From Eledone cirrhosa (taxonomy: Eukaryota), in assembly GCA_964016885.1 (NCBI GenBank), contig OZ024766.1:15748001-15812000 (forward strand): 64,000 nucleotides of DNA, in the 5' to 3' direction. This document shows, in pieces, positions 8,685 to 63,100 of this stretch; within the stretch, counting starts at the first letter, position 1; every line of letters begins with the position of its first letter. A program made the position numbers and the translations under genes. The notes below the pieces were generated by a model, which made no database searches, had not been told where the DNA came from, and was given only the letters and a program-made list of their open reading frames with translations.

Positions 8685-10360
8685 AGTATTTTCTCTCAGA
8701 TCCCTTATCGTCCGGTCCAAAGCTTTAATTGCTCGTTTATAGTTCATGCTGGGGTCATTCCAAATTATCATCTTCCATGTTTGCAGAAGCTTAACCCTTG
8801 GATGAGTTCTTCTTGATGTTGCAAAAAGATTTGTCATGCCATGTAAGGCCTATGGGCCACTTAAGCATGGAGTGTGCAGTCCTGCCTCCATTCAGAAGTG
8901 CTGCTATAATACCTCCCGAAAACACGGCAAGGGAAATATGTTATTTTGGTGAACTTTTGCAAGCAGGAGGTTCATGAGGAATGTCTTCCTGTGCCAAGCA
9001 GGAGCATCGATGAAGAAAAGTCCTCCCCTGTCATTTTGAATGTTTTTCATGATGTTGTGGTCGGCATATTTCTGGTCATCCACCAGTCAAGGTTTATTTT
9101 CATCCACAAACTTACGCAACACTTCAATATCATGGTTTGTCTCCTGGAAAACTGATTGTGTTACATCAATTTCTTCTGGCTCTGGCTTCCTGCATTGTTA
9201 TTCATCGCTGGAATTCAATGGGACAGGTTGCACAGAGGTTGATTGTAAATCCTGGAGGTAGATTCCACATAAATATTGCTATAACATCTTTGGGCTAGGT
9301 GTAGATAGTCGTCTGACATATTGTTTTTGTACTCCTGCCAGGGTAGATGAGATTTATTCCACATGCTGTGAGTATAGTAGCAAACAACTGTCTTATTTAA
9401 CTGGCCCCTCCAGTGACTGCTCCTTCTAGTCCCTTCTTCCAATGTCAGTTGTCATACAGGTGTCCATGGCTGTCTTATTTAACTGGCTACTCCAGTGACT
9501 GCTCCTTCTAGTCCCTTCTTCCAATGTCAGTTGTCATACAGGTGTCCATGGCTGTCTTATTTAACTGGCCCCTCCAGTGACTGCTCCTTCTAGTCCCTTC
9601 TTCCAATGTCAGTTGTCATACAGGTGTCCATGGCTGTCTTATTTAACTGGCTACTCCAGTGACTGCTCCTTCTAGTCCCTTCTTCCAATGTCAGTTGTCA
9701 TACAGGTGTCCATGACTGTCTTATTTAACTGGCTACTCCAGTGACTGCTCCTTCTAGTCCCTTCTTCCAATGTCAGTTGTCATACAGGAGTCCATGGCTG
9801 TCTTATTTACCTGGCTACTCCAGTGACTGCTCCCGCTAGTCCCTTCTTCCAATGTCAGTTGTCATACAGGAGTCCATGGCTGTCTTATTTAACTGACTAC
9901 TCCAGTGACTGCTCCTTCTTGTCTCTTCTTCCAATGTCGATTGCCATGCAGGAGTTGATGTTCTTTAGATGCTTCTTGGTATGTGCTGCACTCTTCCACC
10001 AAATCACCTGAGATCCTCAAATGACGTTGGTCCTTGAACAATATGCAGAAGTGGCTGTAAATAAAAACTCTCTCTGTTGTTGGGGTGGTCATTGTAAACA
10101 TGCCCAATAGCATCACTTTCCTTGACTTCATCACCTTCCACTAAATGACCCTGCTTCCTTTGATTCCAAGTCTTACAATTGGTCCAGGTGTAGTATTTTG
10201 GGATGTCAGCATATAGGAGGGATCGAACAAATTCTTTATTCTGGCAGTGTTTCAAAAAAGCAGTTAGAGTAGTGTCAGGTGGTGCTGGTGTCAACTGATG
10301 AGCAGTGGTTTCAGTGAAGTACACACTCTGTCCATTTTCTATATGTATAGAGATAAGGAT
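8685..10360 (-). mobile_element. Decayed Helitron Rep/PIF1-helicase fragment (longest copy), interrupted by the 82-bp satellite
   Basis: Minus-strand peptides HIENGQSVYFT..PPDTTLTAF..LLYADIPKYYTW..RKQG..HPNNRESFYL.PLLHIVQGPTSFEDLR; IRQLFATILTAC; WQEYKNNMSDD; GGLFFIDAPAWHRKTFLMNLLLA (degenerate Walker A); LLNGGRTAHS; KALDRTIRDLR, in RepHel order; frameshifts and stops present. Confidence 0.88.
9388..9954. repeat. 82-bp satellite array 1 (~7 copies)
   Basis: Unit CATGGCTGTCTTATTTAACTGGCTACTCCAGTGACTGCTCCTTCTAGTCCCTTCTTCCAATGTCAGTTGTCATACAGGTGTC. Confidence 0.95.
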
Positions 10361-10367
10361 GAAAATC

Positions 10368-10560
10368 AAAGTTAATCCCTCAGAGGTTAGCTTTGCCTTT
10401 CATCCCTACGGGGTCGATAAAATAAAGTACCAGTAATGTACTGGAGTATGGCTGGCCTTGTGCCTAATGTAGAAACAATTATTACGGGGTCGATAAAATA
10501 AAGTACCAGTAATTCACTGGGGTATTTACTGGCCTTGTGCCAAAATTAGAAACAATTATC
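10368..10560 (+). mobile_element. SINE 3' half (Meta-domain-like) with ~76-bp tail unit in tandem (2 copies here; 3 at ~18490-18760, 2 at ~36580-36772, 1 at ~52320-52433, 5 at ~63176-63590)
   Basis: GAGGTTAGCTTTGCCTTTCATCCCTACGGGGTCGATAAAATAAAGTACCAGT, same as the 3' half of the intronic SINE at 11956-12132. Confidence 0.7.
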
Positions 10561-10599
10561 ACATTTCTTTTTAATAAATCACATCACTATATAATTAAA

Positions 10600-10712
10600 T
10601 ACGACTGGAAATGTGCCTGAAGGTACGAAATTATGTCAGGGACTTTTCACGTTTGACACCGCACGAGAGTCGAGACATTCGCTAAGACACCGAGTACCTG
10701 CTGTCTTCGTTA
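10600..10712 (+). promoter_or_regulatory. Candidate ZNF promoter (CpG-containing patch), repeated at ~18798, ~36812, ~52473 and ~63627
   Basis: CpG-rich non-repeat patch in otherwise AT-rich DNA, ~500 bp upstream of a conserved splice donor; inference only, no transcript data. Confidence 0.35.
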
Positions 10713-11305
10713 TAACTTTAATTAATCTAATTATATCTTGTGTAACAATTATATATATATACACACACACAATTTTAATTCCCCGACATCAGTCTTACAC
10801 TGTCATATCTATTCTTACTTTACAATTGTGTCTACTAAGAGTTCCATTACAATCTGTAGTAGTAAAACTACTATTTCACCAGAACATCTGCTATCAGTCA
10901 TTTATAGACAATATATATATTTTAGACCACATATCAACCTAATATATATATATTTCCTATCTAATCTGTAGCTAAAGACATAAAGTCAGCCTCACTACTT
11001 CATTCTGACAAGATATCAATTTATGACTAAAGATGAAGAAGATACACCAACGTTAATGTCGTGAAATAAAGCTGATAACATTGAAACTTCTAATTTGATA
11101 ACAAAGAGATTATTTCTTTGGTTGTTTAGTAACAACTAACAACACAATACATTGATTATATGTGAAGGAGGTAAGTTGACAAAGATTTACTTAATGTCTA
11201 TATTAATGTGTGTAAATAATATAATTATGTGACCCCTACAACGCACCAGTAATTAACCAGATTCCACTGTTACATGTGATATAAAATATATTGTTATCAT
11301 GATTC

Positions 11306-11643
11306 TTTATTATTTAAATTACCTCCGTCTATTTAATTATCTTGTTCACTACCTTACATTATAAAATATAGTTTATATTTAGCTGTACCTTGTTGTTGTT
11401 TGAAGTAAATTAAAGATATATTTATTATTTAAATTACCTCCGTCTATTTAATTATCTTGTTCACTACCTTGCATTATAAAATACAGTTTATATTTAGCTG
11501 TACCTTGTCATTGCTTTAAGTAAATTAAAGATATATTTATTATTTAAATTACCTCCGTCTATTTAATTATGTGGTTCACTACCTTACATTATAAAATATA
11601 GTTTATATTTAGCTGTACCTTGTTGTTGCTTTAAGTAAATTAA
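11306..11643. repeat. 115-bp AT-rich intronic VNTR (3 copies; 2 at ~19503-19725, 6 at ~37511-38193, 5 at ~53176-53738)
   Basis: ACCTCCGTCT marker at 11321, 11436, 11551; and at 37526, 37641, 37756, 37871, 37986, 38101. Confidence 0.92.
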
Positions 11644-11955
11644 TATTTTGTGGATTTTAGTCTAAACCTCTTACAATTTAATTAACTTCATCTACTTATG
11701 GTTGAACATTACTTTATTGTGTGTTTCATTTCATTATAATTATGTCTGAGTTAGCCAGCCAAGTAGAGGTTGAGTATCTGTATTTCAGGGCACTGCTTTG
11801 ATGGTGAAGGGACATCTGTTGGTGTGGGATCTCGGTGGCTGTACATACTAAGGTTCTAATACTCTAAAGAGCTAGCTGAATAACCGTCTGATACATGTCT
11901 TGTATACAGGATCATAAAGCCATGTATAGAAGAGCAGTCAGGATTAACATTCATA

Positions 11956-12132
11956 GTGAAGTGGCAGCATCGGTAGAGAGTCGGACACCATGCTTTGAGG
12001 CACAGAGTTACGTCCCTTTGTGATCTGAGTTCACATCCAGCCGAGGTTAACTTTGCCTTACATCCATACAGGGTCGATAAAATAAAGTACCAGTAATGTA
12101 CTGGCCTTGTGTTTAAAATAGAAACAATTATA
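11956..12132 (+). mobile_element. tRNA-derived SINE with Meta-like domain (also ~20048-20235, ~38516-38703, ~54061-54248)
   Basis: A box TGGCAG(C/T)ATCGG, B box GAGTTCA(A/C)ATCC, then GCCGAGGTTAACTTTGCCTTACATCCATAC.GGGTCGATAAAATAAAGTACCAGT. Confidence 0.75.
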
Positions 12133-12229
12133 GTGAATAATTTGGAGTGTAGTCTGGTGTCCACCAGGGCTCTGTTCTTAGCCCTCACTTAGTTATTATC
12201 GTCCTGCAGCCTATAACAGAGATGTTTAA

Positions 12230-12815
12230 GACTGGCTGCCCATGGTAACTCCTGTATGCCCAGCAGGTCCTGAAGAATGCGATCATGTGCATTTTCCAGG
12301 TCTATAAAACGATAATATATACCTCTTAGCAATACTCCCACGATTTCTCAAAGACGTGCCACAGTGAGAATATTTGGTGGGTTATGTTGCACCCAGGGAG
12401 AAAACAGCACTGTCCATCAGCTAGCTTCGACTCGCTACATCACTTTGCCAGAAACTTAGCATATACTTTACCATGGAGTCTTAACAAGGTGATCCCTCTC
12501 TATTTGGAACAATCTCTCGTGTCTCCCTTTTTATAAATTGGGATTATTACTCCCGAGTGCCATTTCAGAGACCCAGGCCACCTGACACACATGAGTCGGT
12601 CACATTTGAGCTCTTTAATTGCTCTTGTGACCTCAGCCTCCGAGAGATTAGTCACCGCTATCAGATTCACCTCATGTACATCCGAAGATGCTGTTGTGAT
12701 CGGGTTTGGGAGATCAGCAAAGTATTCTCTCCACCTCATGAGGATCCATCTCTCTGAAGAGAAAAGAACCCCAGATGCACTCATGGTTGCAGGTGTGGAG
12801 GAAGATTTCTTGTAA
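12230..12815 (-). mobile_element. Old RTE-like LINE ORF fragment, linker and RT N-terminus (also ~20330-20933, ~38800-39401, ~54345-54944)
   Basis: RWREYFADL, EAEVTRAIKELK, GVIIPIYKKGDTRDCSK followed by RGITLLRL..KVYAK; frameshifted. Confidence 0.8.
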
Positions 12816-12972
12816 CTAATTAAAAATTAAAATAATTTCATTTTTCAATAAAAAGTTTCCAGGGTTTATAGATGTGAAATTTCCACTGTTTAATCTATCT
12901 CTGCTTCTTAAGTATTCTCTATTATCTCATACTGTTTCTTTTTCATTTCAGAATATCAGATGACATTGGGAT

Positions 12973-13206
12973 AAATTATTATTTTCAATCTTGGATACAT
13001 CACCTCTATTTATCATCATTTGAAGATTAAAACTTTTTAAACGGAACTTATATAACACTGTTTATATAAATCTATCAGAATTACTGTGAAAATTATTATT
13101 TTCAATGTTGGATACATCACCTTTATTTATCATCATTTGAAGATTAAAACTTTTTAAACAGAACTTATATAACACTGTTTATACAAATCTATCAGAATTA
13201 CTGTGA
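12973..13206. repeat. 117-bp tandem duplication in the predicted 5' UTR, private to gene 1
   Basis: TTGGATACATCACC at 12991 and 13108; single copy in the other three genes. Confidence 0.9.
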
Positions 13207-13406
13207 TATATTTCCTCAGAACTGAGTTTAAAGACAAAATTTCTTTTCTTCACTGTGTGGTGTATATATGAGAGATATATTTTGTATTTTAACTCAACTT
13301 CAATGACAAAGAAGTTTGCATCATCTTCAGGTATTAACTGAGATCATAATTGAGGGAAATATAACAAAAGAAATATTTTTTAGGAATATAATATGAAAAA
13401 TATTAA

Positions 13407-14558
<1,152 letters not shown>

Positions 14559-15075
14559 CAAAGTCATATCTCATTGTCTCAAAATTGTAAATTAATTTGA
14601 CACAAATACATTCATATGAGTGAGAAGCTATACCACCGTGATATTGTGGAGAAATTATTCTCTTGTATTGCTACATTAACTACATACAAACATAAATATC
14701 TACTGAAGAAAAGCCATATCACTGTGATATCTGTGGAAATTGTTATCTATAAAAGCTAGCTTAACTAGACACAAACATATATATACAGGAGAGAAACTAT
14801 ATCACTGTGATATCTGTGGGAAATCATTCTCTGAAATAAGTCACTTCACTCAGCACTAACATTTACAGAAAAGGAACCATATCATTGTGATATCTGCAGT
14901 AAATCATTCTCTAAATGTGGCTTCACTAGACACTAACATATACAGGAGAGGAACTATATCACTGTGATGTCTGGTAAATCCTTCTCTAAATGTTGAGAAT
15001 TCCCTACACACTAACATATACAGGAGAGGAACCATATCACTGTGTTGTCTGTGGTAAATCATTTTCTAAATGTTG
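14559..15075 (+). pseudogene. ~6 decayed zinc-finger relics in the 3' UTR (equivalents 23142-23740, 56823-57340; shortened at ~41450-41565)
   Basis: Recurrent CCATATCACTGTGATATCTGTGG / ACATATACAGGAGAG.AACC motifs with stops and indels. Confidence 0.85.
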
Positions 15076-15178
15076 TGGTACCAACATAAGGTTACTTAAT
15101 GTAACAGAAACACAATCAGACAAGATAAAAACCATATCACTCACCCAAAATAGTGCCACCAATGTTGTTAATGTTTTG

Positions 15179-15184
15179 AATAAA
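15179..15184 (+). terminator. Candidate polyadenylation signal AATAAA (also 23843, 41665, 57445)
   Basis: Conserved in all four genes, followed by T/GT-rich sequence. Confidence 0.5.
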
Positions 15185-15519
15185 ACTTGTTTGTTCTGAA
15201 ATTATTCTCCTTTCATTTTATTAGTAGAAGTTGTAACCAAGACTTATGCTGACAAATCTGTATGGTACAGAATTTACAAACACTGTATATATATATATAT
15301 ATGTGCCAAAACATCTATGATCTCGGTTTACAGCTGATGAAGGGTTTATTTTCTCCTTTCATCCATATTACCATCTCAAACTTTGTTTACAGTAACCACA
15401 CAGCTCCTTTCGTTTCTTAGAATTTTATATATATATATATAACAAAGGAAGTGTGGTAAAGAACCAGATGGACCATATACACACCAGAGTACTCAATACT
15501 TAGGGTAGTAGAGCGGGTA

Positions 15520-15642: not shown

Positions 15643-15958
15643 ATATATATATGTATGAGTGTATATTTCAGTGTGTAGAAATTTCTGTCCATGAAAATGA
15701 TTATCTTTATTTGTGTATATGTGTGTGTGTATATGTATATGTATGTTTATATGTGTTCTTATATACATGTGTGCACATCTTGAAATATTTTCAGTGTCTG
15801 TTCTAGTTCTCAGAGTACAAATCCCACTGAGGTAAAGTTGCTTCGATATTTTGAGGTCAATAAATGAAATACCAGTGAAATACTGGGGTGGTTAATTCCT
15901 CTTCTTTGTCATTGTCTGTTTGTCTACTCTTCTCTTTCTCTGTATTTATATATATATA

Positions 15959-16154
15959 TCCAAAATTAAGATAAATTAAAATAAAATTAATGTAAATCAA
16001 ATTATGGGAGTCATGCCAGAAAGACATGTGACATATCACCCGTAAAATAAGCTCCATGGAGCTTATTTTATGGGTGATATGGTGCATGTCTTTCTGGCAT
16101 TACACCCATAATTTGATTTAGATTAATTTTATTTTAATTTATCTTAATTTTGGA
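15959..16154. mobile_element. ~196-bp spacer-less palindrome (MITE-like) inserted in (TA)n; copies at 24639-24828, 43654-43826, 47692-47881, 58214-58409
   Basis: TCCAAAATTAAGATAAAT ... ATTTATCTTAATTTTGGA, symmetric about AAGCTCCA|TGGAGCTT; (TA)n on both sides. Confidence 0.88.
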
Positions 16155-16609
16155 TATATATATATATAAATAGGGCCTCTTAATTGTAGAGCTAACTCTG
16201 TTGAAAGGACCTGACTGCTGTTTCTAGTTGTCAATAACCCTATTCACGCAACTGGGACGAAGCTGGTATGATGTGTGTATTTTTAGTAGATACAGCACGT
16301 GTTACTGGTCAGTCGCTGATTTGAACTTGATGCGTAAACACAGATGGTTGGACTTCTTCCTTGTTGAGAATCCAAGATCTGGCTACTGTCGTTTACCAAT
16401 CGATTAATTGGTGAAATATATTTCTTTAATGGAATATATACAAGGAAGATTAATCATTTTCTAAGGTATCTATTTTTGAAGTTCTAGTTAAATTTATTTT
16501 GTTACCTACCTAGCTATGTGTGCTTACACACTTTTACAAATTATCCCCTGTGATTGTTTCATATGTTTATTTATATGTCAATCAATTTCTAGTTGATACA
16601 TATATATAT

Positions 16610-18072
16610 CCATGGCTGTCTTATTTAACTGACTACTCCAGTGACTGCTCCTTCTAGTCTCTTCTTCCAATGTCAGTTCTCATACAGGTGTCCATGGCTG
16701 TCTTATTTAACTGGCTACTCCAGTGACTGCCCCTTCTAGTCTCTTCTTCCAATGTCAGTTGTCATACAGGTGTCCATGGCTGTCTTATTTAACTGGCTAC
16801 TCCAGTGACTGCTCCATCTAGTCCCTTCTTCCAATGTTAGTTGTCATACAGGTGTCCATGGCTGTCTTATTTAACTAGCTACTCCAGTGACTGCTCCTTC
16901 TAGTCCCTTCTTCCAATGTCAGTTGTCATACAGGTGTCCATGGCCATATTATTTAACTGGCTACTCCAGTGTCTGCTCCTTCTAGTCCCTTCTTCCAATG
17001 TCAATTGTCATACAGGTGTCCATGGCTGTCTTATTTAACTGGCTACTCCAGTGACTGCTCCTTCTAGTCTCTTCTTCCAATGTCAGTTGTCATACAGGTG
17101 TCCATGGCTGTCTTATATAACTAGCTACTCCAGTGACTACTCCTAGTCTCTTCCAATGTCAGTTGTCATACAGGAGTCCATGGCTGTCTTATTTAACTGG
17201 CTACTCCAGTGACTGCTCCTTCTAGTCCCTTCTTCCAATCTCAGTTGTCATACAGAAGTCCATGGCTGTCTTATTTAACTGGCTACTCCAGTGACTGCTC
17301 CTTCTAGTCCCTTCTTACATTGTTAGTTGTCATACATGTGTCCATGGCTGTCTTATTTAACTGGCTACTCCAGTGACTGCCCCTTCTAGTCTCTTCTTCC
17401 AATGTCAGTTGTCATACAGGAGTCCATGGCTGTCTTGTTTAACTGGCTACTCCAGTGACTGCTCCTTTTAGTCCCTTCTTCCAATGTCAGTTGTCATACA
17501 GGAGTCCATGGCTATCTTATTTAACTGGCTATTCCAGTGATTGCTCCTAGTCCCTTCTTCCAATGTCAGTTGTCATACAGGTGTCCATGGCTGTCTTATT
17601 TAACTGGCTACTCCAGTGACTGCTCCTTCTAGTCCCTTCTGCCAATGTCAGTTGTCATACAGAAGTTCATGGCTGTCTTATTTAACTGGCTACTCCAGTG
17701 ACTGCTCCTTCTAGTCTCTTCTTCCAATGTCAGTTGTCATACAGGAGTCCATGGCTGTCTTATTTAACTGGCTACTCCAGTGACTGCTCCTTCTAGTCTC
17801 TTCTTCCAATGTCAGTTGTCATACAGGAGTCCATGGCTGTCTTATTTAACTGGCTACTCCAGTGACTGCTCCTTCTAGTCTCTTCTTCCAATGTCAGTTG
17901 TCATACAGAAGTTCATGGCTGTCTTATTTAACTGGCTACTCCAGTGACTGCTCCTTCTAGTCTCTTCTTCCAATCTCAGTTGTCATACAGAAGTCCATGG
18001 CTGTCTTATTTAACTGGCTACTCCAGTGACTGCTCCTTCTAGTCTCTTCTTCCAATATCAATTGCCATGCAG
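16610..18072. repeat. 82-bp satellite array 2 (~18 copies)
   Basis: CATGG at 16611, 16693 ...; joined directly to (TA)n on the left. Confidence 0.96.
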
Positions 18073-18480: not shown

Positions 18481-21443
18481 TGAAAAGCAAAGTTAATCCC
18501 TCAGAGGTTAGCTTTGCCTTTCATCCCTACGGGTTCGATAAAATAAAGTACCAGTAGTGTACTGGGGTATTGCTGGCCTTGTGCCTAATGTAGAAACAAT
18601 TATTACGGGGTCGATAAAATAAAGTACCAGTAATTCACTACCGTATTTACTGGCCTTGTGCCTAAAGTAGAAACAATTATTACGGGGTCGATAAAATAAA
18701 GTACCAGTAATACACTAGGGTAATTGCTGGCCTTGTGCCAAAAGTAGAAACAATTATCACATTTCTTTTTAATAAATCACATCACTATAGAATTAAATAC
18801 GACTGGAAACGTGTGTGAAGGTACTAAATTATGTCAGGGACTTGTCACGTTTGACACCGCACGAGAGTCGAAACGTTCGCTAAGACACCGAGTACCTGCT
18901 GTCTTCGTTATAACTTTAATTAATCTAATTATATCTTGTGTAACAATTATATATATATATACACACACACAATATTAATTCCCCGACATCAGTCTTACAC
19001 TGTCATATATATTCTTACTTTACAATTGTGTCTACTAAGAGTTCCATTACAATCTAGTAAAACTACTATTTCACCAGAACATCTGCTCTCAGTCATTTAT
19101 AGACAATATATATATTTTAGACCACATATCAACCTAATATATATATATTTCCTATCAAATCTGTAGCTAAAAACATAAAGTCAGTCTCACTACTTCATTC
19201 TGACAAGATATCAATTTATGACTAAAGATGAAGAAGATACACCAACGTTAATGTCGTGAAATAAAGCTGATAACATTGAAACTTCTAATTTGATAACAAA
19301 GAGATTATTTCTTTGGTTGTTTAGTAACAACTAACAACACAATACATTGATTATATGTGAAGGAGGTAAGTTGACAAAGATTTACTTAATGTCTATATTA
19401 ATGTGTGTAAATAATATAATTATGTGAACCTTACAACGATTCAGTAATTAACTAGATTCCACTGTTACATGTGATATAAAATATATTGTTATCATGACTG
19501 TCTTTATTATTTAAATTACCTCCGTCTATTTAATTATCTTGTTCACTACCTTACATTATAAAATATAGTTTATATTTAGCTATACCTTGTTATTGCTTTA
19601 AGTAAATTAAAGATATCTTTATTATTTAAATTACCTCCGTCTATTTAATTATGTGGTTCACTACCTTACATTATAAAATATATTTTATATTTAGCTGTAC
19701 CGTGTTGTTGCTTTAAGTAAATTAATATTTTGTCTATTTTAGTCTAAATCTCTTACAATTTAATTAACTTCATCTACTTATGGTTGAACATTACTTTATT
19801 GTGGGTTTCATTTCATTATAATTATGTCTGATTAGCCAGCCAAGTAGGGGTTGAGTATCTGTATTTCAGGGAACTGCTTTGATGGTGAAGGGACATCTGT
19901 TGGTGTGGGATCTCGGTGGCTGTACATAATAAGGTTCTAATACTCTAAAGAGCTAGCTGAATAACCGCCTGATACATGTCTTGTATAGAGGATCATAAAG
20001 CCATGTATAGAAGAGCAGTCAGCAATGTCAGGATTAACATTCATTATAGTGAAGTGGCAGTATCGGTAGAGAGTCGGACACCATGCTTTGAGGCACAGAG
20101 TTACGTCCCATTATGATCTGAGTTCAAATCCCGCCGAGGTTAACTTTGCCTTACATCCATACGGGGTCGATAAAATAAAGTACCAGTAATGTACTGGGTA
20201 ATTGCTGGCCTTGTGTTTAAAATAGAAACAATTATAGTGAATAATTTGGAGTGTAGTCTGGTGTCCACCAGGGCTCTGTTCTTAGCCCTCACTTAGTTAT
20301 TATCGTCCTGCAGCCTATAACAGAGATGTTTAAGACTGGCTGCCCATGGGAACTCCTGTATGCTCAGCAGGTCCTGAAGAATGCGATCATGTGCATTTTC
20401 AAGGTCTATAAAACAATAATATATACCTCTTAGCAATACTCCCACGATTTCTCAAAGACCTGCCACAGTGTGAATATTTGGTAGGTTATGTTGCACCCAG
20501 GGAGAAAACAGCACTGTCCATCAGCTAGCTTGGACTCGCTACATCACTTTGCCAGAAACTTTGCATATACTTTACCAGGGAGTCTTAACAAGGTGATCCC
20601 TCTCTATTTGGAACAATCTCTCGTGTGTCCCTTTTTATAAATTGGGATTATCACTCCCGATTGCCTTTGCTTGAGTGCCATTTCAGAGACCCAGGCCATC
20701 TGACACACATGAGTCGGTCACATTTGAGCTCTTTAATTGCTCTTGTGACCTCAGCCTCCGAGAGATTAGTCACCGCTATCAGATTCACCTCATGTACATC
20801 CGAAGATGCTGTTGTGATCGGGTTTGGGAGATCAGCAAAGTATTCTCTCCACCTCATGAGGATCCATCTCTCTGAAGAGAAAAGAACCCCAGATACACTC
20901 ATGGTTGCAGGTGTGGAGAAAGATTTCTTGTAACTAATTAAAAACTAAAATAATTTGATTTTTCAATAAAAAGTTTCCAGGGTTTATAGATGTAAAATTT
21001 CCACTGTTAAATCTATCTCTGCTTCTTAAGTATTCTCTATTATTTCATACTGTTTCTTTTTCATTTCAGAATATCAGATGACATTAGGATAAATTATTAT
21101 TTTCAATCTTGGATACATCACCTCTATTTATCATCATTTGAAGATTAAAACTTTTTAAACAGAACTTATATAACACTGTTTATATAAATCTATCAGAATT
21201 ACTGTGATATATTTCCTCAGAACTGAGTTTAAAGACAAAATTCCTTTTCTTCACTGTGTGGTATATATATATGAGAGATATATTTTGTATTTTAACTCAG
21301 CTTCAATGACAAAGAAGTTTGCATCATCTTCAGGTATTAACTGAGATCATAATTGAGGGAAATATAACAGAAATATTATTTTTTAGGAAAAAAAATATTA
21401 AAGAGTAACATCTGTAAATTCTGCCAAGGGTAGAAGAATTATT

Positions 21444-39917: not shown

Positions 39918-41117
39918 ATGGAAAATATATTGAGTGAAAAGAAGATTAAATGTGAAACAATGTCTAAAGATATGGCTATTACAGAAGAGATGTCAAAGGA
40001 TAGAGGAGAGAAGCCATATCACTGTGATATCTGTGGTATATCATTCTCTCTAAGTTGTATATTAACTTGTCACATACGTACCCATACATGTAACAAACCA
40101 TATCACTGTGATATCTGTGGTAAATCATTCTTTGTGAGAAGAAATTTAACTAATCACATACGTACCCATACAGGAGAGAAGCCATATAACTGTGATATCT
40201 GTGGTAAATCATTCTCTCAAAGTAGTATATTAACTAACCACATACGTATACATACAGGTGAGAAGCCATATCACTGTGATATCTGTGGTAAATCATTCTC
40301 TCTAAGTAATACATTAACTTGTCACATACGTACCCATACATGTAACAAACCATATCACTGTGATATCTGTGGTAAATCATTCTCTTTTAGGAGTAATTTA
40401 ACTAATCACAAACGTATACATACAGGAGAGAAGCCATATCATTGTGATATCTGTGGTAAATTGTTCTCAACAAGTGGTACATTAACTTCTCACATACGTA
40501 CTCATACAGGAGACAAGCCTTATCACTGTGATATCTGTGGTAAATCATTCAATAGTAGTAGTACCTTAACTATCCACAAACGTACCCATACAGGAGACAA
40601 GCCATATCACTGTGATATATGTAGTAAATCATTCTCTGATAGTAGTACCTTAACTAGCCACAAACGTACCCATACAGGAGACAAGCCATATCACTGTGAT
40701 ATCTGTGGAAAATCATTCTTTGTTACTGGTAATTTAACTAGCCACAAACGTATACATACAGGAGACAAGCCATATCACTGTGATATCTGTGGGAAATCAT
40801 TCTCTCAAAGTGGTACCTTAACTAGCCACAAACGTATACATACAGGAGAGAAGCCATATCACTGTGATATCTGTGGTAAATCATTCTCTGTAAGTAGTGC
40901 CTTACCTAGACACAAACGTACTCATACAGGAGACACGCCATACCACTGTGATATCTGTGGGAAATCATTCTCTCGAAGTAGTCACTTAACTAGACACAAA
41001 CATATACATACAGGAGACAAACCATATCACTGTGATATCTGTGGTAAATCATTCAATAAAAGTAGTCACTTAACTGCACACATGCGTATACATACAGGTG
41101 ACAAACCATATCACTGA
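39918..41117 (+). CDS. C2H2 zinc-finger protein 3, 399 aa, 13 fingers, truncated by a 2-bp deletion
   Basis: CACTGTGATATC shortened to CACTGATATC, creating TGA at 41115-41117; finger sequence continues downstream. Confidence 0.85.
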
Positions 41118-48627: not shown

Positions 48628-48709
48628 TATATATATATATACACGTGGAAAAGTAAAATATAGCAGAACAGACCGTTAAAAGATGTTTATTTAAAATAGC
48701 AACTATGTA

Positions 48710-49587: not shown

Positions 49588-52310
49588 TGTCATGTTGAAT
49601 GTTTTTCATGTTGTGGTAGGCATATTTCTGGCCATCCACCAGTCAAGGTTTATTTTCATCCACAAACTTACGCAACACTTCAATATCATGGTTTGTCTCC
49701 GGAAAAATTGATTGTATTAACTCAATTTCTTCTGGCTCTGGCATCCTACATTGCTATTCATTGTTGGAATTCAATGGGACAGGTTGCACAGAGGTTGATT
49801 GTAAATCTTGGAGGTAGATTCCACATAAATATTGCTATAACGTCTTTGGGCTAGGTGTAGATAGTCGTCTGACATATTGTATTTGTGCTCCTGCCAGGGT
49901 AGATGAGATTTATTCCACATGCTGTGAGTATAGTAGCAAACAACTGTCTTATTTAACTGGCTACTCTAGTGACTGCTCCTTCTAGTACCTTCTCCCAATG
50001 TCAGTTGTCATACAAGTGTCCATGGCTGTCTTATTTAACAGGCTACTCCAGTGACTGCTCCTTCTAGTCTCTTCTTCCAATGTCAGTTGTCATACAGGTG
50101 TCCATGGCTGTCTTATTTAACTGGCTACTCCAGTGACTGCTCCTTCTAGTCCCTTCTTCCAATGTCAGTTGTCATACAGGTGTCCATGGCTGTCTTATTT
50201 GACTGGCTACTCCAGTGACTGCTCCTTCTAGTCTCTTCTTCCAATGTCAGTTGTCATACAGGTGTCCAAGGCTGACATATTTAACTGGCTACTCAAGTGA
50301 CTGCTCCTTCTAGTCCATTCTTCCAATGTCAGTTGTCATACAGGTGTCCATGGCTGTCTTGTTTAACTGGATACTCCAGTCACTGCCGCTTCTAGTCTCT
50401 TCTTCCAATGTCAGTTGTCATACAGGTGTCCATGGCTGTCTTATTTAACTGGCTACTCCAGTGACTGCCCCTTCTAGTCTATTCTTCCAATGTCAGTTGT
50501 GATACAGGTGTCCATGGCTGACTTATTTAACTGGCTACTCCAGTGTCTGCTCCTTCTAGTCTCTTCTTCCAATGTCAGTTGTGATACAGGTGTCCATGGC
50601 TGACTTATTTAACTGGCTACTCCAGTGACTGCTCCTTCTAATCTCTTCTTCCAATGTCAGTTGTCATACAGGAGTCCATGGCTGTCTTATTTAACTGGCT
50701 ACTCCAGTGACTGCTCCTTCTAGTCCCTTCTTCCAATGTCAGTTGTCATACAGGTGTCCATGGCTGTCTTGTTTAACTGGCTACTCCAGTGACTGCTCCT
50801 TCTAGTCTCTTCTTCCAATGTCAGTTGTCATACAGGTGTCCATGGCTGTCTTATTTAACTGGCTACTCCAGTGACTGCTCCTTCTAGTCTCTTCTTCCAA
50901 TGTCAATTGTCATACAGGAGTCCATGACTGTTTTATTTAACTGGCTACTCCAGTGACTGCTCCTTCTAGTCTCTTCTTCCAATGTCAGTTGTCATACAGG
51001 TGTCCATGGCTGTCTTATTTAACTGGCTACTCCAGTGACTGCCCCTTCTAGTCTATTCTTCCAATGTCAGTTGTCATACAGGTGTCCATGGCTGTCTTAT
51101 TTAACTGGCTACTCCAGTGACTGCTCCTTCTAGTCTCTTCTTCCAATGTCAATTGTCATACAGGAGTCCATGACTGTTTTATTTAACTGGCTACTCCAGT
51201 GACTGCCCCTTCTAGTCTATTCTTCCAATGTCAGTTGTCATACAGGTGTCCATGGCTGTCTTATTTAACTGGCTACTCCAGTGACTGCCCCTTCTAGTCT
51301 ATTCTTCCAATGTCAGTTGTCATACAGGTGTCCATGGCTGTCTTATTTAACTGGCTACTCCAGTGACTGCTCCTTCTAATCTCTTCTTCCAATGTCAGTT
51401 GTCATACAGGAGTCCATGGCTGTCTTATTTAACTGGCTACTCCAGTGTCTGCTCCTTCTAGTCCCTTCTTCCAATGTCAGTTGTCATACAGGTGTCCATG
51501 GCTGTCTTATTTAACTGGCTACTCCAGTGACTGCTCCTTCTAGTCTCTTCTTCCAATGTCAATTGTCATACAGGTGTCCATGGCCATCTTATTTAACTGG
51601 CTACTACAGTGACTACTCCTTCTAGACCCTTCTTCCAATGTCAGTTGTCATACAGGATTCCATGGCTGTCTTATTTAACTGGCTACTCCAGTGACTGCTC
51701 CTTCTCGTCTCTTCTTCCAATGTCAGTTGTCATACGGGTGTCCATGGCTGTCTTATTTAACTGGCTACTACAGTGACTGCTCCTTCTAGTCCCTTCTTCC
51801 AATGTCAGTTGTCATACAGGAGTCCATGGCTGTCTTATTTAACTGGCTACTCCAGTGACTGCCCCTTCTTGTCTCTTCTTCCAATGTCAATTGCCATGCA
51901 GGAGTTGATGTTCTTTAAATGCTTCTTGATATGTGCTGCACTCTCCCTCCAAATCACCTGAGATCCTCAAATGACGTTGGTCCTTGAACAATAAGCAGAA
52001 GTGGCTGTAAATAAAAACTCTCTCTGTTGTTGGGGTGGTCATTGTAAACATGCCCAATAGCATCACTTCCCTTGACTTCATCACCTTCCACTAAATGACC
52101 CTGCTTCCTTTGATTCCAAGTCTTACAATTGGTCCAGGTGTAGTATTTTGGGATGTCAGCATATAGGAGGGATCGAAGAAATTCTTTATTCTGGCAGTGT
52201 TTCAAAAAAGCAGTTAGAGTAGTGTCAGGTGGTGCTGGTGTCAACTGATGAGAAGTGGTTTCAGTGAAGTACACACTCTGTCCATTTTCTATATGTATAG
52301 AGATAAGGAT
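49588..52310 (-). mobile_element. Helitron RepHel fragment split by satellite
   Basis: ORF 51954-52319 and region 49588-49943 homologous to cassette 1. Confidence 0.85.
49944..51904. repeat. 82-bp satellite array 5 (~24 copies)
   Basis: 82-bp period. Confidence 0.96.
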
Positions 52311-55300
52311 GAAAAGCAAAGTTAATCTCTCAGAGGTTAGCTTTGCCTTTCATCCCTACGGGGTCGATAAAATAAAGTACCAGTAATATACTAGGGTAAT
52401 TGCTGGCCTTGTGCCAAAAGTAGAAACAATTATCACATTTCTTTTTAATAAATCACATCACTATAGAATTAAATACGACTGGAAATGTGTGTGAAAGTAC
52501 AAAATTATGTCAGGGACTTTTCACGTTTGACACCGAACGAGAGTCGAAACATTCGCTAAGACACCGAGTACCTGCTGTCTTCGTTATAACTTTAATTAAT
52601 CTAATTATATCTTGTGTAACAATTATATATATATACACACACAATTTTAATTCCCGGACATCAGTCTTACACTGTCATATCTATTCTTACTTTACAATTG
52701 TGTCTACTAAGAGTTCCATTACAATCTGTAGTAGTAAGACTACTATTTCACCAGAACATCTGCTATCAGCCATTTATAGACAATATATATATTTTAGACC
52801 ACATATCAACCTAACATATATATATTTCTATCAAATCTGTAGCTAAAGACATAAAGTCAGCCTCACTACTTCATTCTAACAAGATATCAATTTATGACTA
52901 AAGATGAAGAAGATACACCAACGTTAATGTCGTGAAATAAAGCTGATAACATTGAAACTTCTAATTTGATAACAACGAGATTATTTCTTTGGTTGTTTAG
53001 TAACAACTAACAACACAATACATTGATTATATATGAAGGAGGTAAGTTGACAAAGATTTACTTAATGTCTATATTAATGTGTGTAAATAATATAATTATG
53101 TGACCCCTACAACGCACCAGTAATTAACCAGATTCCACTGTTAAATGTGATATAAAATATATTGTTATGACTGTCTTTATTATTTAAATTACCTCCGTCT
53201 ATTTAATTATCTAGTTCACTACCTTACATTATAAAATATAGTTTATATTTAGCTGTACCTTGTTATTGTTTTAAGTAAATTAAAAATATATTTATTATTT
53301 AAATTACCCCCGTCAATTTAATTATCTTGTTCACTACCTTACATTATAAAATATAGTTTATATTTAGCTGTACCTTGTTATTGCTTTAAGTAAGTGAAAG
53401 ATATATTTATTATTCAAATTACCTCCGTCTATTTAATTATGTGGTTCACTACCTTACATAATGTAATTTATATTTAACTGTACCTTGTTATTGCTTGAAG
53501 TAAGTTAAATATATATTTATTATTTAAATTACCTCCGTCTATTTAATTATCTTGTTCACTACCTTACATTATAAAATATAGTTTATATTTATCTGTACCT
53601 TGTCATTGCTTTAAGTAAATTAAAGATATATTTATTATTTAAATTACCTCCGTCTATTTAATTATGTGGTTCACTACCTTACATTATAAAATATAGTTTA
53701 TATTTAGCTGTACCTTGTTATTGTTTTAAGTAAATTAATATTTTGTCTGTTTTAGTCTAAATCTCTTACAATTTAATTAACTTCATCTACTTATGGTTGA
53801 ACATTACTTTATTGTGGGTTTCATTTCATTATAATTATGTCTGATTAGCCAGCCAAGTAGGGGTTGCGTATCTGTATTTCAGGGAACTGCTTTGATGGTG
53901 AAGGGACATCTGTTGGTGTGGGATCTCGGTGGCTGTACATAATAAGGTTCTAATACTCTAAAGAGCTAGCTGAATAACCGTCTGATACATGTCTTGTATA
54001 GAGGATCATAAAGCCATGTATAGAAGAGCAGTCAGCAATGTCAGGATTAACATTCATTATAGTGAAGTGGCAGTATCGGTAGAGAGTCGGACACCATGCT
54101 TTGAGGCACAGAGTTACGTCCCTTTATGATCTGAGTTCAAATCCCGCCGAGGTTAACTTTGCCTTACATCCATACGGGGTCGATAAAGTAAAGTACCAGT
54201 AATGTACTGGGTAATTGCTGGCCTTGTGTTTAAAATAGAAACAATTATAGTGAATAATTTGGAGTGTAGTCTGGTGTCCACCAGGGCTCTGTTCTTAGCC
54301 CTCACTTAGTTATTATCGTCCTGCAGCCTATAACAGAGATGTTTAAGACTGGCTGCCCATGGTAACTCCTGTATGCTCAGCGGGTCCTGAAGAATGCGGT
54401 CATGTGCATTTTCCAGGTCTATAAAACGATAATATATACCTCTTAGCAATACTCCCACGATTTCTCAAAGAGCTGCCACAGTGTGAATATTTGGTGGGTT
54501 ATGTTGCACCCAGGGAGCAAACAGCACTGTCCATCAGCTAGCTTCGACTCGCTACATCACTTTGCCAGAAACTTTGCATATACTTTACCAGGTAGTCATA
54601 ACAAGGTGATCCCTCTCTATTTGGAACAATCTCTCGTGTGTCCCTTTTTATAAATTGGGATTATCACTCCCGATTGCCTTTGCTTGAGTGCCATTTCAGA
54701 GACCCAGGCCATCTGACACACGAGTCGGTCACATTTGAGCTCTTTAATTGCTCTTGTGACCTCAGCCTCCGAGAGATTAGTCACCGCTATCAGATTCACC
54801 TCATGTACATCCGAAGATGCTGTTGTGATCGGGTTTGGGAGATCAGCAAAGTATTCTCTCCACCTCATGAGGATCCATCTCTCTGAAGAGAAAAGAACCC
54901 CAGATACACTCATGGTTGCAGGTGTGGAGAAAGATTTCTTGTAACTAATTAAAAACTAAAATAATTTGACTTTTCAATAAAAAGTTTCCAGGGTTTATAG
55001 ATGTAAAATTTCCACTGTTAAATCTATCTCTGCTTCTTAAGTATTCTCTATTGTTTCATACTGTTTCTTTTTCATTTCAGAATATCAGATGACATTAGGA
55101 TAAATTATTTTTTTCGATCTTGGATACATCACCTCTATTTATCATCATTTGAAGATTAAAACTTTTTAAACAGAACTTATATAACACTGTTTATATAAAT
55201 CTATCAGAATTACTGTGATATATTTCCTCAGAACTGAGTTTAAAGACAAAATTCCTTTTCTTCACTGTGTTGTATATATATGAGAGATATATCTTGTATT

Positions 55301-55460
55301 TTAACTCAGCTTCAATGACAAAGAAGTTTGCATCATCTTCAGGTATTAACTGAGATCATAATTGAGGGAAATATAACAAAAATAATATTTTTTACGAATA
55401 TAATATAAAAAATATTAAAGAATAACATCTGTAAATTCTGCCAAAGGAAGAAGAATTATT

Positions 55461-56822
55461 ATGGAAAATAAATTGAGGGAAAAGAAGATTAAATGTGAAA
55501 CAATGTCTAAAGATATGGCTATTACAGAAGAGATGTCAAAGGATAGAGGAGAGAAGCCATATCACTGTGATATTTGTGGTAAATCATTCTCTGAAAGTGG
55601 TAACTTAACTAGACACAAACGTATACATACAGAAGAGAAACCATATCACTGTGATATCTGTGGTAAATCATTCTTTGTTAATGGTAATTTAACAAGCCAC
55701 AAACGTACACATACAGGAGAGAAGCCATATCACTGTGATATCTGTGGTAAATCATTCTCTCGAAGTAGTAATTTAACTAGCCACATGCGTATACATACAG
55801 GTGAGAAGCCATATCACTGTGATATCTGTGGTAAATCATTCTTTGTTAATAGTAAATTAACTAGACACAAACGTACACATACAGGAGACAAGCCATATCA
55901 CTGTGATATCTGTGGTAAATCATTCTCTCTAAGTAGTATATTAACTTGTCACATCCGTACCCATACAGGTGACAAGCAATATCACTGTGATATCTGTGGT
56001 AAATCATTCTCTGAAAGTGGTAACTTAACTAGACACAAGCGTATCCATACAGGAGAGAAGCCATATCACTGTGATATCTGTGGTAAATCATTCTCTTTTA
56101 GTAGTAATATAAATTCTCACATACGTACTCATACAGGAGAGAAGCCATATCACTGTGATATCTGTGGTAAATCATTCTTTAATAATATTAGTTTAACTAG
56201 ACACGAACGTACCCATTCAGGAGAGAAGCCATATCACTGTGATATCTGTGGTAAATCATTCTTTGTTAATAGTAATTTAACTAGACACAAAAGTATACAT
56301 ACAGGAGAGAAGCCATATTACTGTGATATCTGTGGTAAATCATTCTCTGAAAGTGGTACCTTAACTAGCCACAAACGTATACATACAGGAGACAAGCCAT
56401 ATCACTGTGATATCTGTGGTAAATCATTCTCTCGAAGAAGTTACTTAACTGAGCACTTACGTATCCATACAGGTGAGAAGCCATATCACTGTGATATCTG
56501 TAGTAAATCATTCTCTGATAGTGGTACCTTAACTAGCCACATACGTATACATACAGGAGAGAAGCCATATCACTGTGATATCTGTAGTAAATCATTCTCT
56601 GAAAGTGGTACCTTAACTAGACACAAACGTATCCATACAGGAGAGAAGCCACATCACTGTGATATCTGTGGTAAATCATTCTCTGAAAGTGGTACCTTAA
56701 CTAGACACAAACGTATCCATACAGGAGAGAAGCCATACCACTGTGATATCTGTGGTATATCATTCTCTCAATTAAGTAGTTTAACTAAACACAAATATAC
56801 CCATACAGGTAAGAAACCATAA
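55461..56822 (+). CDS. C2H2 zinc-finger protein 4, 453 aa, 15 tandem fingers
   Basis: Intact ORF; same leader and terminal finger as genes 1 and 2. Confidence 0.94.
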
Positions 56823-59800: not shown

Positions 59801-60120
59801 AAACGTGCTTCACTGCTCAATAAATGTAATGAAGACATGACAAATTGTCCTCTCGCACCCTCTCTCTATATATAGAGAAAAGGTGAAGTTAGAAATAGCA
59901 CGGAAAATATATTTTAGGGCCTGTTTTATGTTATATATCTTTTGATTCGTTAAAGTGACCCTATTGAAAAAATGGGAGAGACATCATCATTCATCATCAT
60001 TTCATTTAACGTCCACATTTTCCCTGCTTGCAAGGGTGGTACGGGAACTGATTGTGGCTTGATTTCTAAAGATGGATGCCCTTCCTAACGCCAACCTCAT
60101 TTACAGTGAGTGCTGGGTGC

Positions 60121-63100
60121 TGTCATGTTGAATGTTTTTCATGTTGTGGTAGGCATATTTCTGGCCATCCACCAGTCAAGGTTTATTTTCATCCACAAAC
60201 TTACGCAACACTTCAATATCATGGTTTGTCTCCTGAAAAAGTGATTGTATTAACTCAATTTCTTCTGGCTCTGGCATCCTACATTGCTATTCATTGTTGG
60301 AATTCAATGGGACAGGTTGCAAAGAGGTTGATTGTAAATCTTGGAGGTAGATTCCACATAAATATTGCTATAACGTCTTTGGGCTAGGTGTAGATAGTCG
60401 TCTGACATATTGTATTTGTGCTCCTGCCAGGGTAGATGAGATTTATTCCACATGCTGTGAGTATAGTAGCAAACAACTGTCTTATTTAACTGGCTACTCC
60501 AGTGACTGCTCCTTCTAGTCTCTCCTTCCAATATCACTTGTCATACAGGTGTCCATGGCTGTCTTATTTAACTGGCTACTCCAGTGACTGCTCCTTCTAG
60601 TCTCTTCTTCCAATGTCAGTTGTCATACAGGTGTCCATGGCTGTCTTATTTAACTGGTTACTCCAGTGACTGCTCCCTCTAGTCCCTTCTTCCAATGTCA
60701 GTTGTCATACAGGAGTCCATGGCTGTCTTATATAACTGGCTACTCCAGTGACTGCTCCCTCTAGTCCCTTCTTCCAATGTCAGTTGTCATACAGGAGTCC
60801 ATGGCTGTCTTATTTAACTGGCTACTCCAGTGACTGCTCCTTCTAATCTCTTCTTCCAATGTCAGTTGTCATACAGGAGTCCATGGCTGTCTTATTTAAC
60901 TGGCTACTCCAGTGACTGCTCCTTCTAGTCCCTTCTTCCAATGTCAGTTGTCATACAGGTGTCCATGGCTGTCTTGTTTAACTGGCTACTCCAGTGACTG
61001 CTCCTTCTAGTCCCTTCTTCCAATGTCAGTTGTCATACAGGTGTCCATGGCTGTCTTGTTTAACTGGCTACTCCAGTGACTGCTCCTTCTAGTCTCTTCT
61101 TCCAATGTCAGTTGTCATACAGGTGTCCATGGCTGTCTTATTTAACTGGCTACTCCAGTGTCTGCTCCTTCTAGTCCCTTCTTCCAATGTCAGTTGTCAT
61201 ACAGGTGTCCATGGCTGTCTTATTTAACTGGCTACTCCAGTGACTGCTCCTTCTAGTCCCTTCTTCCAATGTCAGTTGTCATACAGGTGTCCATGGCTGT
61301 CTTGTTTAACTGGCTACTCCAGTGACTGCTCCTTCTAGTCTCTTCTTCCAATGTCAGTTGTCATACAGGTGTCCATGGCTGTCTTATTTAACTGGCTACT
61401 CCAGTGTCTGCTCCTTCTAGTCCCTTCTTCCAATGTCAGTTGTCATACAGGTGTCCATGGCTGTCTTATTTAACTGGCTACTCCAGTGACTGCTCCTTCT
61501 AGTCCCTTCTTCCAATGTCAGTTGTCATACAGGTGTCCATGGCTGTCTTGTTTAACTGGCTACTCCAGTGACTGCTCCTTCTAGTCTCTTCTTCCAATGT
61601 CAGTTGTCATACAGGTGTCCATGGCTGTCTTATTTAACTGGCTACTCCAGTGTCTGCTCCTTCTAGTCCCTTCTTCCAATGTCAGTTGTCATACAGGTGT
61701 CCATGGCTGTCTTATTTAACTGGCTACTCCAGTGACTGCTCCTTCTAGTCTCTTCTTCCAATGTCAATTGTCATACAGGAGTCCATGACTGTTTTATTTA
61801 ACTGGCTACTCCAGTGACTGCTCCTTCTAGTCTCTTCCAATGTCAGTTGTCATACAGGTGTCCATGGCTGTCTTGTTTAACTGGCTACTCCAGTGACTGC
61901 TCCTTCTAGTCTCTTCTTCCAATGTCAGTTGTCATACAGGTGTCCATGGCTGTCTTATTTAACTGGCTACTCCAGTGACTGCTCCTTCTAGTCTCTTCTT
62001 CCAATGTCAGTTGTCATACAGGTGTCCATGGCTGTCTTATTTAACTGGCTACTCCAATGACTGCTCCTTCTAGTCTCTTCTTCCAATGTCAATTGTCATA
62101 CAGGTGTCCATGGCCATCTTATTTAACTGGCTACTACAGTGACTACTCCTTCTAGACCCTTCTTCCAATGTCAGTTGTCATACAGGATTCCATGGCTGTC
62201 TTATTTAACTGGCTACTCCAGTGACTGCTCCTTCTCGTCTCTTCTTCCAATGTCAGTTGTCATACGGGTGTCCATGGCTGTCTTATTTAACTGGCTACTC
62301 CAGTGACTGCTCCTTCTAGTCTCTTCTTCCAATGTCAGTTGTCATACAGGTGTCCATGGCTGTCTTATTTAACTGGCTACTCCAATGACTGCTCCTTCTA
62401 GTCTCTTCTTCCAATGTCAATTGTCATACAGGTGTCCATGGCCATCTTATTTCACTGGCTACTACAGTGACTACTCCTTCTAGACCCTTCTTCCAATGTC
62501 AGTTGTCATACAGGATTCCATGGCTGTCTTATTTAACTGGCTACTCCAGTGACTGCTCCTTCTCGTCTCTTCTTCCAATGTCAGTTGTCATACGGGTGTC
62601 CATGGCTGTCTTATTTAACTGGCTACTACAGTGACTGCTCCTTCTAGTCCCTTCTTCCAATGTCAGTTGTCATACAGGAGTCCATGGCTGTCTTATTTAA
62701 CTGGCTACTCCAGTGACTGCCCCTTCTTGTCTCTTCTTCCAATGTCAATTGCCATGCAGGAGTTGATGTTCTTTAAATGCTTCTTGATATGTGCTGCACT
62801 CTTCCTCCAAATCACCTGAGATCCTCAAATGACGTTGGTCCTTGAACAATAAGCAGAAGTGGCTGTAAATAAAAACTCTCTCTGTTGTTGGGGTGGTCAT
62901 TGTAAACATGCCCAATAGCATCACTTGCCTTGACTTCATCACCTTCCACTAAATGACCCTGCTTCCTTTGATTCCAAGTCTTACAATTGGTCCAGGTGTA
63001 GTATTTTGGGATGTCAGCATATAGGAGGGATCGAAGAAATTCTTTATTCTGGCAGTGTTTCAAAAAAGCAGTTAGAGTAGTGTCAGGTGGTGCTGGTGTC

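Follow-up and report, generated by a model that had tools for sequence, protein, structure and literature searches.

A 64,000-nucleotide stretch of the Eledone cirrhosa genome (GCA_964016885.1, contig OZ024766.1, positions 15,748,001 to 15,812,000, forward strand; hereafter the window) was analysed for an 82-bp satellite. A preliminary description had placed this satellite upstream of zinc-finger (ZNF) genes and attributed it to Helitron protein-coding sequence. The window is the left edge of a ZNF cluster. Six arrays of the 82-bp repeat were called in it by Tandem Repeats Finder (TRF), with 93-95% matches, together with four 84-bp zinc-finger arrays on the plus strand. The satellite derives from the coding sequence of a Helitron RepHel gene. 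Very probably it is a tandemly amplified coding piece of a dead, truncated RepHel gene, and it stands upstream of the ZNF genes most likely only through co-duplication with them as one unit. The features are listed below in window coordinates (ORF, open reading frame; P0001 and P0002 are full-length RepHel proteins).

8673-9027, minus: distal helicase portion of the dead RepHel gene, reaching about residue 820 of P0001 and 1175 of P0002 (tblastn)
9028-9387, minus: Hel-side flank, remnants of the RepHel linker and P-loop region (..LFATILTACGI.., ..WQEYKNNMSDDYL.., GGLFFIDAPAWHRKTFL); in the duplicated unit
9388-9952, minus: 82-bp array 1, 6.9 copies; monomer corresponds to RepHel residues ~642-669 of P0001 (TRF, tblastn)
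9953-10345, minus: Rep-side flank, RepHel fragment, residues 508-641 of P0001 and 765 to ~900 of P0002, including a 131-aa open stretch
13407-14558, plus: ZNF ORF of unit 1, 383 aa stop-to-stop, 12 C2H2 fingers
16609-18072, minus: 82-bp array 2, 18.0 copies; without the Hel-side flank, directly next to the tail of unit 1 (TRF, self-alignment)
21402-23138, plus: ZNF ORF of unit 2, 579 aa, 19 fingers (coordinates from array-ORF distances)
26013-36165, minus: 82-bp array 3, 123.9 copies; long-range duplications inside (TRF, self-alignment)
39876-41114, plus: ZNF ORF of unit 3, 413 aa, 13 fingers (coordinates from array-ORF distances)
45015-47603, minus: 82-bp array 4, 31.6 copies; lacks the Rep-side flank and a ZNF gene (TRF, self-alignment)
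49944-51902, minus: 82-bp array 5, 23.9 copies (TRF, self-alignment)
55419-56819, plus: ZNF ORF of unit 5, 467 aa, 15 fingers (coordinates from array-ORF distances)
60477-62760, minus: 82-bp array 6, 27.9 copies; its ZNF ORF begins ~3.8 kb beyond, outside the window (TRF)

The sizes and places of the six arrays agree with those given in the preliminary description, and the minus-strand peptides quoted there were all found; the pattern is well outside what chance would give. The flanks contain ..CSTYQEASKEHQ.. and ..LFATILTAC.. / ..WQEYKNNMSDD.., and the majority monomer translates as HGHLYDN*HWKKGLEGAVTGVAS*IRQ. The statement that an array precedes every ZNF gene held for all four ZNF ORFs of the window, which have an array 3.3-3.7 kb upstream, but not in reverse for its six arrays: array 4 is geneless and the gene of array 6 lies outside. 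At position 47604, the edge of array 4, the repeat is joined straight to a unit tail (equivalent to 15875-16608). The finger array of unit 1 runs on, in degenerate form, to ~15067.

Origin of the monomer in RepHel coding sequence

Three full-length RepHel proteins were compared with window positions 8000-10700 by tblastn. Residues 508-626 of P0001 matched 10355-10005 (minus strand) in the Rep-side flank with an E value of 2e-42. At 46% identity (E 4e-5), residues 642-680 matched the final monomer together with the adjoining flank, HGLLEDDAHWDQTLEEAAATRHSRQLRQLFAIMLITCGM being aligned with HGHLYDN*HWKKGLE-GAVTGGAS*IRQLFATILTACGI. Beyond the monomer, WEKHRDSMAEDIL was aligned with WQEYKNNMSDDYL in the P-loop region, and helicase sequence was followed to P0001 residue 820 at about 8677. 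The matches are collinear across flank, monomer and flank. The monomer is therefore in register with RepHel, as had been proposed, and occupies the linker between the Rep and helicase domains.

The 131-aa open stretch beside array 1 (10004-10399, minus) matches full-length proteins with Helitron_like_N and PIF1 domains (E 4e-34). The window fragment as a whole comprises only residues ~765-1175 of a ~1,490-residue RepHel, contains stops and frameshifts, and lacks the Rep domain. It is an internal coding piece in which no sign of element ends was found, and it lies antisense to the C2H2 ZNF ORF, about 3.5 kb upstream. PF05970 (PIF1) is recorded on the remnant with E 3.7e-4 and 20.6 bits, under the Pfam cut-off of 25.9. 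Stops and frameshifts are also present in the far helicase part (8673-9027), and copies of the Helitron family match from 8673 onward.

A genome search with the Hel-side flank gave 383 first-look candidates; 39 of the 40 that were scored were located on other contigs, at 82-84% identity. Eight family copies were fetched from elsewhere in the genome, and the segment equivalent to the monomer is single-copy in all eight. In these copies the segment measures 85 bp, is in frame (..HGLLHDNGHWKKCLEEAAITQVASQIRQLFAIMLTACGI..) and is free of stops in seven of the eight. The majority monomer is identical to it at 66-69 of 80 aligned bases, a likeness similar to that of the flanks (80-86%). The copies in the cluster all carry a 3-bp deletion (85 to 82 bp) and two stops (GGA to TGA and CAA to TAA). 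Derivation of the satellite from RepHel coding sequence is shown at both the protein and the DNA level, and the origin put forward in the preliminary description is upheld by tblastn and by the alignment to eight single-copy progenitors. Reuse of the monomer as coding sequence was ruled out, all three of its frames being closed.

One family copy, L005 (G000:C2:275835300-275842500), spans residues 60-1487 of the 1,490-residue P0002 with a single stop, which falls inside the 85-bp segment. The interval L005 1576-5721 is a near-intact RepHel gene, in ORFs of 789 and 592 aa with the one stop between them. The first ORF (1576-3942) matched PF14214 (Helitron_like_N; E 6.5e-48, 163.9 bits against a cut-off of 28.9), and the second (3946-5721) matched PF05970 (PIF1; E 4.6e-59) and PF21530 (E 9e-17). 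The amplified segment sits between the Helitron_like_N and PIF1 domains. Because the copies are 89-95% identical to each other, the progenitor family may have been active fairly recently.

In another Helitron copy, L008, a 2.4-kb stretch open in all three frames was found to be an unrelated 21-bp satellite. At L008 4894-7201 this satellite (>108 copies, continuing beyond the end of the locus) and a GT-rich 64-bp repeat occupy the expected place of that copy's N-terminal half.

Distribution of the arrays and structure of the unit

The junction between adjoining monomers, which cannot occur in a single-copy progenitor, was used as a 20-mer probe, with the reversed 20-mer as control. The probe occurs 618 times forward and 1,575 times in reverse in the 3.0-Gb genome, 2,193 times in all; the control gave 0 and 0. 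All 618 and all 1,575 junctions lie within C27:15,757,462-16,842,647. Since every junction is in this one 1.09-Mb cluster, the satellite is private to it, and the confinement to ZNF clusters raised at the outset was borne out by a genome-wide map.

The same map bears on whether the satellite was carried by transposition within a non-autonomous Helitron, like DINE-TR1 or the Helentron-borne repeats of oyster. Helitron-associated tandem repeats did spread in that way in Drosophila and oyster, according to the available text of PMC9659126 and PMC7492417. Here the arrays are not dispersed in the genome (2,193 of 2,193 junctions in one cluster), the source fragment is internal coding sequence with no sign of element ends, the flank truncations are identical in every unit, and the eight dispersed family copies are single-copy. 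The probability of such carriage is practically nil, and it is already refuted as far as exact-junction mapping of the assembly shows.

The layout of the cluster was examined over C27:15,738,001-17,002,000, a region with no N. The cluster holds 95 arrays of 1.7 to 463 copies (median 18.9), which total 272 kb, or about 25% of the 1.09 Mb. Monomers cut from the arrays are arranged head to tail, and 2,879 of 3,085 are exactly 82 bp. Fifty-five arrays have one orientation up to 16.384 Mb and 40 the opposite orientation from 16.406 Mb, and the ZNF genes of the two opposed halves converge tail to tail. An array of 463 copies (38 kb), the largest of all, adjoins this switch of orientation, at C27 16.384-16.406 Mb (L067-L069). 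No further array or ZNF ORF was found within 10 kb to the left of the window.

Self-alignment gave a whole unit repeated at ~95% identity, in the order Hel-side flank (9028-9387 in the window), array, Rep-side flank (9953-10345), 77-bp repeat, 115-bp repeat, ZNF gene and tail. The Hel-side flank adjoins 77 of the 95 arrays and the Rep-side flank 89; both are kept in 71. A same-strand ZNF ORF of 206-788 aa with 5-25 fingers lies 3.0-4.6 kb downstream of the array in 80 of 95 cases. At least one ZNF ORF occurs before the next array for 90 arrays and none for the other five, and a few ZNF ORFs of the cluster have no array of their own. The median spacer between arrays is 8,356 bp. An array stands before each ZNF gene because Helitron scrap, array and gene form one tandemly duplicated unit; the co-location is most likely inheritance of one insertion rather than repeated targeting.

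The far helicase piece (8673-9027, 355 bp) occurs once in the 1.264 Mb, in unit 1, the leftmost, and canonical units have a ~680-bp deletion relative to unit 1. By these two features the window holds the least-deleted, founder-like copy. A ZNF beyond the right edge (C27:16846852-16849389) was tried as an empty-site paralog and rejected, as it has nothing in common with the unit except fingers. When the genome was searched with the ZNF upstream region, the 40 candidates scored out of 5,180 were all inside the cluster.

Several further repeats were recorded within the unit. The 77-bp repeat is present in 2-4.4 tandem copies per unit (window 10374-10563, with equivalents at 18528-18757, 36620-36776 and 63215-63560). 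It is extremely abundant and dispersed, with a depth in the millions in a DNA-like run, and is also present in runs of other organisms; no tRNA or Rfam match was obtained for it. The copy at 10374-10563 was considered as the Helitron's own 5' region, as the repeat recurs 1.6-2.4 kb past the RepHel homology in family loci. That assignment was dropped on account of the enormous depth and the variable distance, which point to an abundant independent repeat. The 115-bp repeat, between satellite and ZNF gene, is variable in length, with 2.9, 2.0, 6.0 and 4.9 copies at 11306-11643, 19501-19725, 37509-38193 and 53176-53738, respectively. A 117-bp duplication lies at 12973-13206, ~0.2 kb before the ZNF ORF. 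In every unit a minus-strand open stretch of 108 aa (12500-12826 in the window) lies 0.6-0.9 kb upstream of the ZNF ORF; we take it to resemble the start of a non-LTR retrotransposon reverse-transcriptase ORF.

Turnover of the arrays and rearrangement of the cluster

Within the cluster the Hel-side flanks share 95.3% identity and the Rep-side flanks 97.1%, whereas both are 81-83% identical to the family copies. Being closer to each other than to the family, they indicate an insertion that is old relative to cluster growth. Monomers are 94.3% identical between neighbours, 93.8% within arrays and 93.8% between arrays. Two main variant sites define four subtypes (864, 718, 674 and 578 monomers) in near linkage equilibrium. 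Given this equilibrium and the equal identity within and between arrays, either the array would have been polymorphic before the units multiplied or exchange would be ongoing. A global higher-order repeat was sought by lag analysis and rejected; only local long-range duplications were obtained, at 39, 42 and 20-25 monomers.

A multi-unit block of ~150 kb occurs twice, at C27 15.88-16.03 Mb and 16.18-16.34 Mb. Nine of its 13 spacer pairs are 99.67-99.98% identical and four are 94.9-98.6% identical (weighted, 99.1% over 93 kb). The pair may have arisen by very recent duplication, or the assembly may have placed two haplotypes one after the other. Several arrays at matching positions are unequal (57.7 against 41.8, 102.1 against 77.2 and 27.4 against 23.3 copies), and others are unchanged (30.9, 20.0, 16.0 and 4.9 copies). 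The subtype strings of such paired arrays differ by insertions or deletions of ~19-21 monomers. With lengths unequal between near-identical spacers, the arrays therefore probably change by unequal exchange. Long arrays would appear to change length faster than 0.1-0.3% point divergence accrues; were the blocks allelic mis-joins, the arrays would be polymorphic instead.

An assembly artefact, such as two haplotypes placed in tandem, was weighed as the source of the long arrays and near-identical 150-kb blocks. Most spacers of the block pair share 99.7-99.98% identity, arrays as long as 25-38 kb pose difficulties for assembly, and the DNA runs found contain less than half of the sampled words, as short contigs. 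The 95 arrays, however, have distinct strings of monomer variants and several junction types, most units differ by 3-5%, and the region has no N. An artefact on this scale was judged very improbable, and the origin and confinement of the satellite would stand even with some allelic blocks.

A rearrangement junction was located at the edge of 24 of the 95 arrays; 18 of these lack the Hel-side flank and six the Rep-side flank. About five junction types on the Hel side and two on the Rep side were distinguished from the outer sequences, and subsequent duplication of the units multiplied them. None of the three largest arrays has the Hel-side flank. The arrays might thus have driven the growth and rearrangement of the cluster as preferred sites of breakage and non-allelic exchange, as the junctions at array edges, the truncation of the three largest arrays and the place of the 463-copy array beside the orientation switch would suggest. 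As arrays make up 25% of the cluster, however, some array breakpoints are expected by chance, and with about seven junction types for ~95 units most junction copies are later duplications. The ~8.4 kb spacers, at 95-99.9% identity, offer ample homology without the arrays. No excess of breakpoints at arrays over chance was shown among these junctions, with arrays a quarter of the cluster and spacers highly similar. We regard a driving role as unlikely, and the junctions would fit some part for arrays as breakpoints. Of the earlier suggestion that the satellite provides homology for unequal exchange, the portion concerning the arrays themselves agrees with the block-wise gain and loss of monomers and with the junctions at 24 of 95 array edges (about seven types); for exchange between units the spacers suffice and the arrays are not needed.

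Under the favoured explanation, amplification of a dead RepHel fragment followed by co-duplication, the first 82-bp duplication would have come about where a short ACAG-like microhomology allowed slippage or misaligned repair. By the time the unit, ~8.4 kb in addition to the array, began duplicating by unequal crossing-over, the array would have been multi-copy and polymorphic. Copying of multi-unit blocks and inversion of one cluster half would have come later. Through unequal exchange the arrays would afterwards have grown and shrunk independently of one another, as near-neutral passengers.

Function, comparison with known systems and neighbouring repeats

Array length was compared with gene features over 80 units, which include block-duplicated and hence non-independent ones. 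No correlation was seen with the length of the ZNF ORF (rho 0.006, p 0.96) or with finger number (rho -0.016). Power at the 10.25-bp harmonic of the monomer, taken as the measure of 10-bp periodicity, was not above that of shuffles (WW p 0.38, AA/TT 0.84, SS 0.74). No Rfam or tRNA matches were found in the unit. A search for RNA runs containing window positions 9953-15300 found none. Comparison with three runs of other organisms that are possibly RNA, and with one more of unclear kind, yielded only 70-80-nt generic zinc-finger contigs of 90-95% likeness. Two dispersed repeats (10311-10668 and 11922-12279) were covered at very high depth, and no usable splice or start signal was obtained.

The arrays could alternatively act in cis, as regulatory or chromatin elements of variable length by which each ZNF paralog is tuned; they might, for instance, seed heterochromatin, give rise to small RNAs or be bound by the ZNF proteins of the cluster. 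In most units the array is kept at a fixed place, 3.3-3.9 kb before the ORF, and nearly all ORFs stay open, with 5-25 fingers. By analogy, human ZNF clusters are associated with satellites and heterochromatin, and an insulator role has been put forward for Helitron minisatellites of C. elegans (cited below). Unit duplication alone accounts for the fixed position, however, and arrays of 1.7 to 463 copies stand upstream of equally open ORFs without the correlation given above (rho 0.006, p 0.96, n=80). Five arrays are followed by another array with no ZNF ORF in between, and a few ZNF ORFs are without an array; the monomer lacks 10-bp periodicity and the unit lacks an Rfam match. A cis-acting role of this sort was judged quite improbable. 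The length-variable chromatin control envisaged in the preliminary description is without support, since length is uncorrelated with ORF length and finger number and the monomer has no 10-bp periodicity; judged from the sequence, a regulatory role of the arrays is unsupported. Slightly lower still was rated a more specific version, in which the arrays would have been co-opted as paralog-specific chromatin dials. These would silence in proportion to length, possibly via the cluster's own ZNF proteins or small RNAs; their rapid expansion and contraction would decide which ZNF gene, out of ~95 near-identical ones, is expressed, with a damping effect on ectopic recombination in the cluster as well.

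Certain points weigh against the account of a co-duplicated, passive RepHel remnant. The stereotyped position and the retention in 95 units would be expected too were the array useful. The single-copy state was inspected in only eight of the 383 first-look family candidates. The junction between repeats is one base longer than a clean microhomology join, so the mechanism proposed for the first 82-bp duplication is tentative. With 40 candidates scored per genome search, another part of the genome could harbour a diverged paralogous unit that lacks the Helitron scrap. The ~99.8% identical block pairs and the arrays of 25-38 kb could in part be products of assembly.

Satellites from the ORFs of transposable elements are known. 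The text of PMC9659126, as far as available, names PROsat and Pvc20 (LINE-1 ORF2), the chicken HinfI repeat (CR1 ORF2), rye E3900 (gag) and Chenopodium CficCl-61-40 (CACTA Tnp2 transposase). Like these, the 82-bp monomer is a protein-coding piece of a transposable element that was tandemly amplified after the death of the element. Unlike those examples, as they are presented in that text, its source is a Helitron RepHel, it is private to one gene cluster, and its progenitor segment, its junction and its arrays throughout the genome have all been mapped. For Helitrons, the same portion of PMC9659126 names only the non-coding central repeats of DINE elements as a source of satellites, which agrees with the earlier remark that Helitron satellites usually come from non-coding internal repeats. 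The Helentron-borne tandem repeats of Crassostrea gigas are likewise described in the available text of PMC7492417 as non-coding and dispersed. DINE-TR1 and the oyster repeats share with the present satellite a tandem repeat traced to a rolling-circle transposon. On the descriptions in those texts they differ in being non-coding and dispersed by transposition, whereas the 82-bp satellite is derived from coding sequence of an immobile truncated fragment and was spread only by segmental duplication. At the level of titles and abstracts, no precedent for a RepHel-derived satellite was found in the literature searched.

In C. elegans, PATC insulators are stated to have evolved from Helitron minisatellites (bioRxiv 10.64898/2026.08.08.743475, abstract level). 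The two cases share a Helitron-derived tandem repeat beside genes and a proposed chromatin function. The 10-bp periodicity that defines the C. elegans elements in that account is not in the 82-bp monomer (p 0.38-0.84 against shuffles).

The satellite is a further case of a known type, a transposon-ORF satellite within a satellite-interspersed ZNF cluster. The human KRAB-ZNF cluster at 19p12 is reportedly interspersed with beta-satellite, as Eichler and colleagues are said to have described in 1998. There too, satellite blocks reportedly belong to a repeating unit and were multiplied with the ZNF genes; the likeness is one of architecture only, not of homology. The Eledone cirrhosa cluster differs from it in the unrelated sequence and origin of its satellite, its much smaller arrays, one per gene, and its animal lineage. 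In the octopus genome, a tandem repeat of 70-90 bp was reportedly described as enriched at C2H2 clusters (Albertin et al. 2015), but a literature search for such a description gave no match. The role of the satellite is unproven both in 19p12 and in the Eledone cirrhosa cluster.

The case history of satellite birth is unusually complete, comprising a single-copy progenitor, the exact junction, a founder-like copy at the edge and the location of every array. The duplicated blocks allow the change of array length to be set against point divergence. A Helitron transposase gene joins the transposon coding regions known to have seeded satellites, and a non-vertebrate ZNF cluster is added on the same plan as the human satellite-interspersed clusters. 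The findings alone show no function of the satellite. If array length did track the expression or chromatin of the paralogs, ~95 natural alleles of one element would be available for study.

Repeats adjoining the cluster on its left were recorded as minor features of the window. The intervals 905-1520 and 2509-3411 contain a 49-bp repeat, present directly (9.2 copies) and then as its own reverse complement (3 copies), and a 112-bp repeat (8.1 copies, 98% matches) with motifs in common with it. A related 300-bp piece at 8143-8441 is a 93% match to 2049-1747. The left boundary of the canonical duplicated units is a short piece of this 49-/112-bp repeat element. A 22-bp satellite of 204 copies (91% matches) occupies 3587-8048 and adjoins the left edge of the ZNF cluster.

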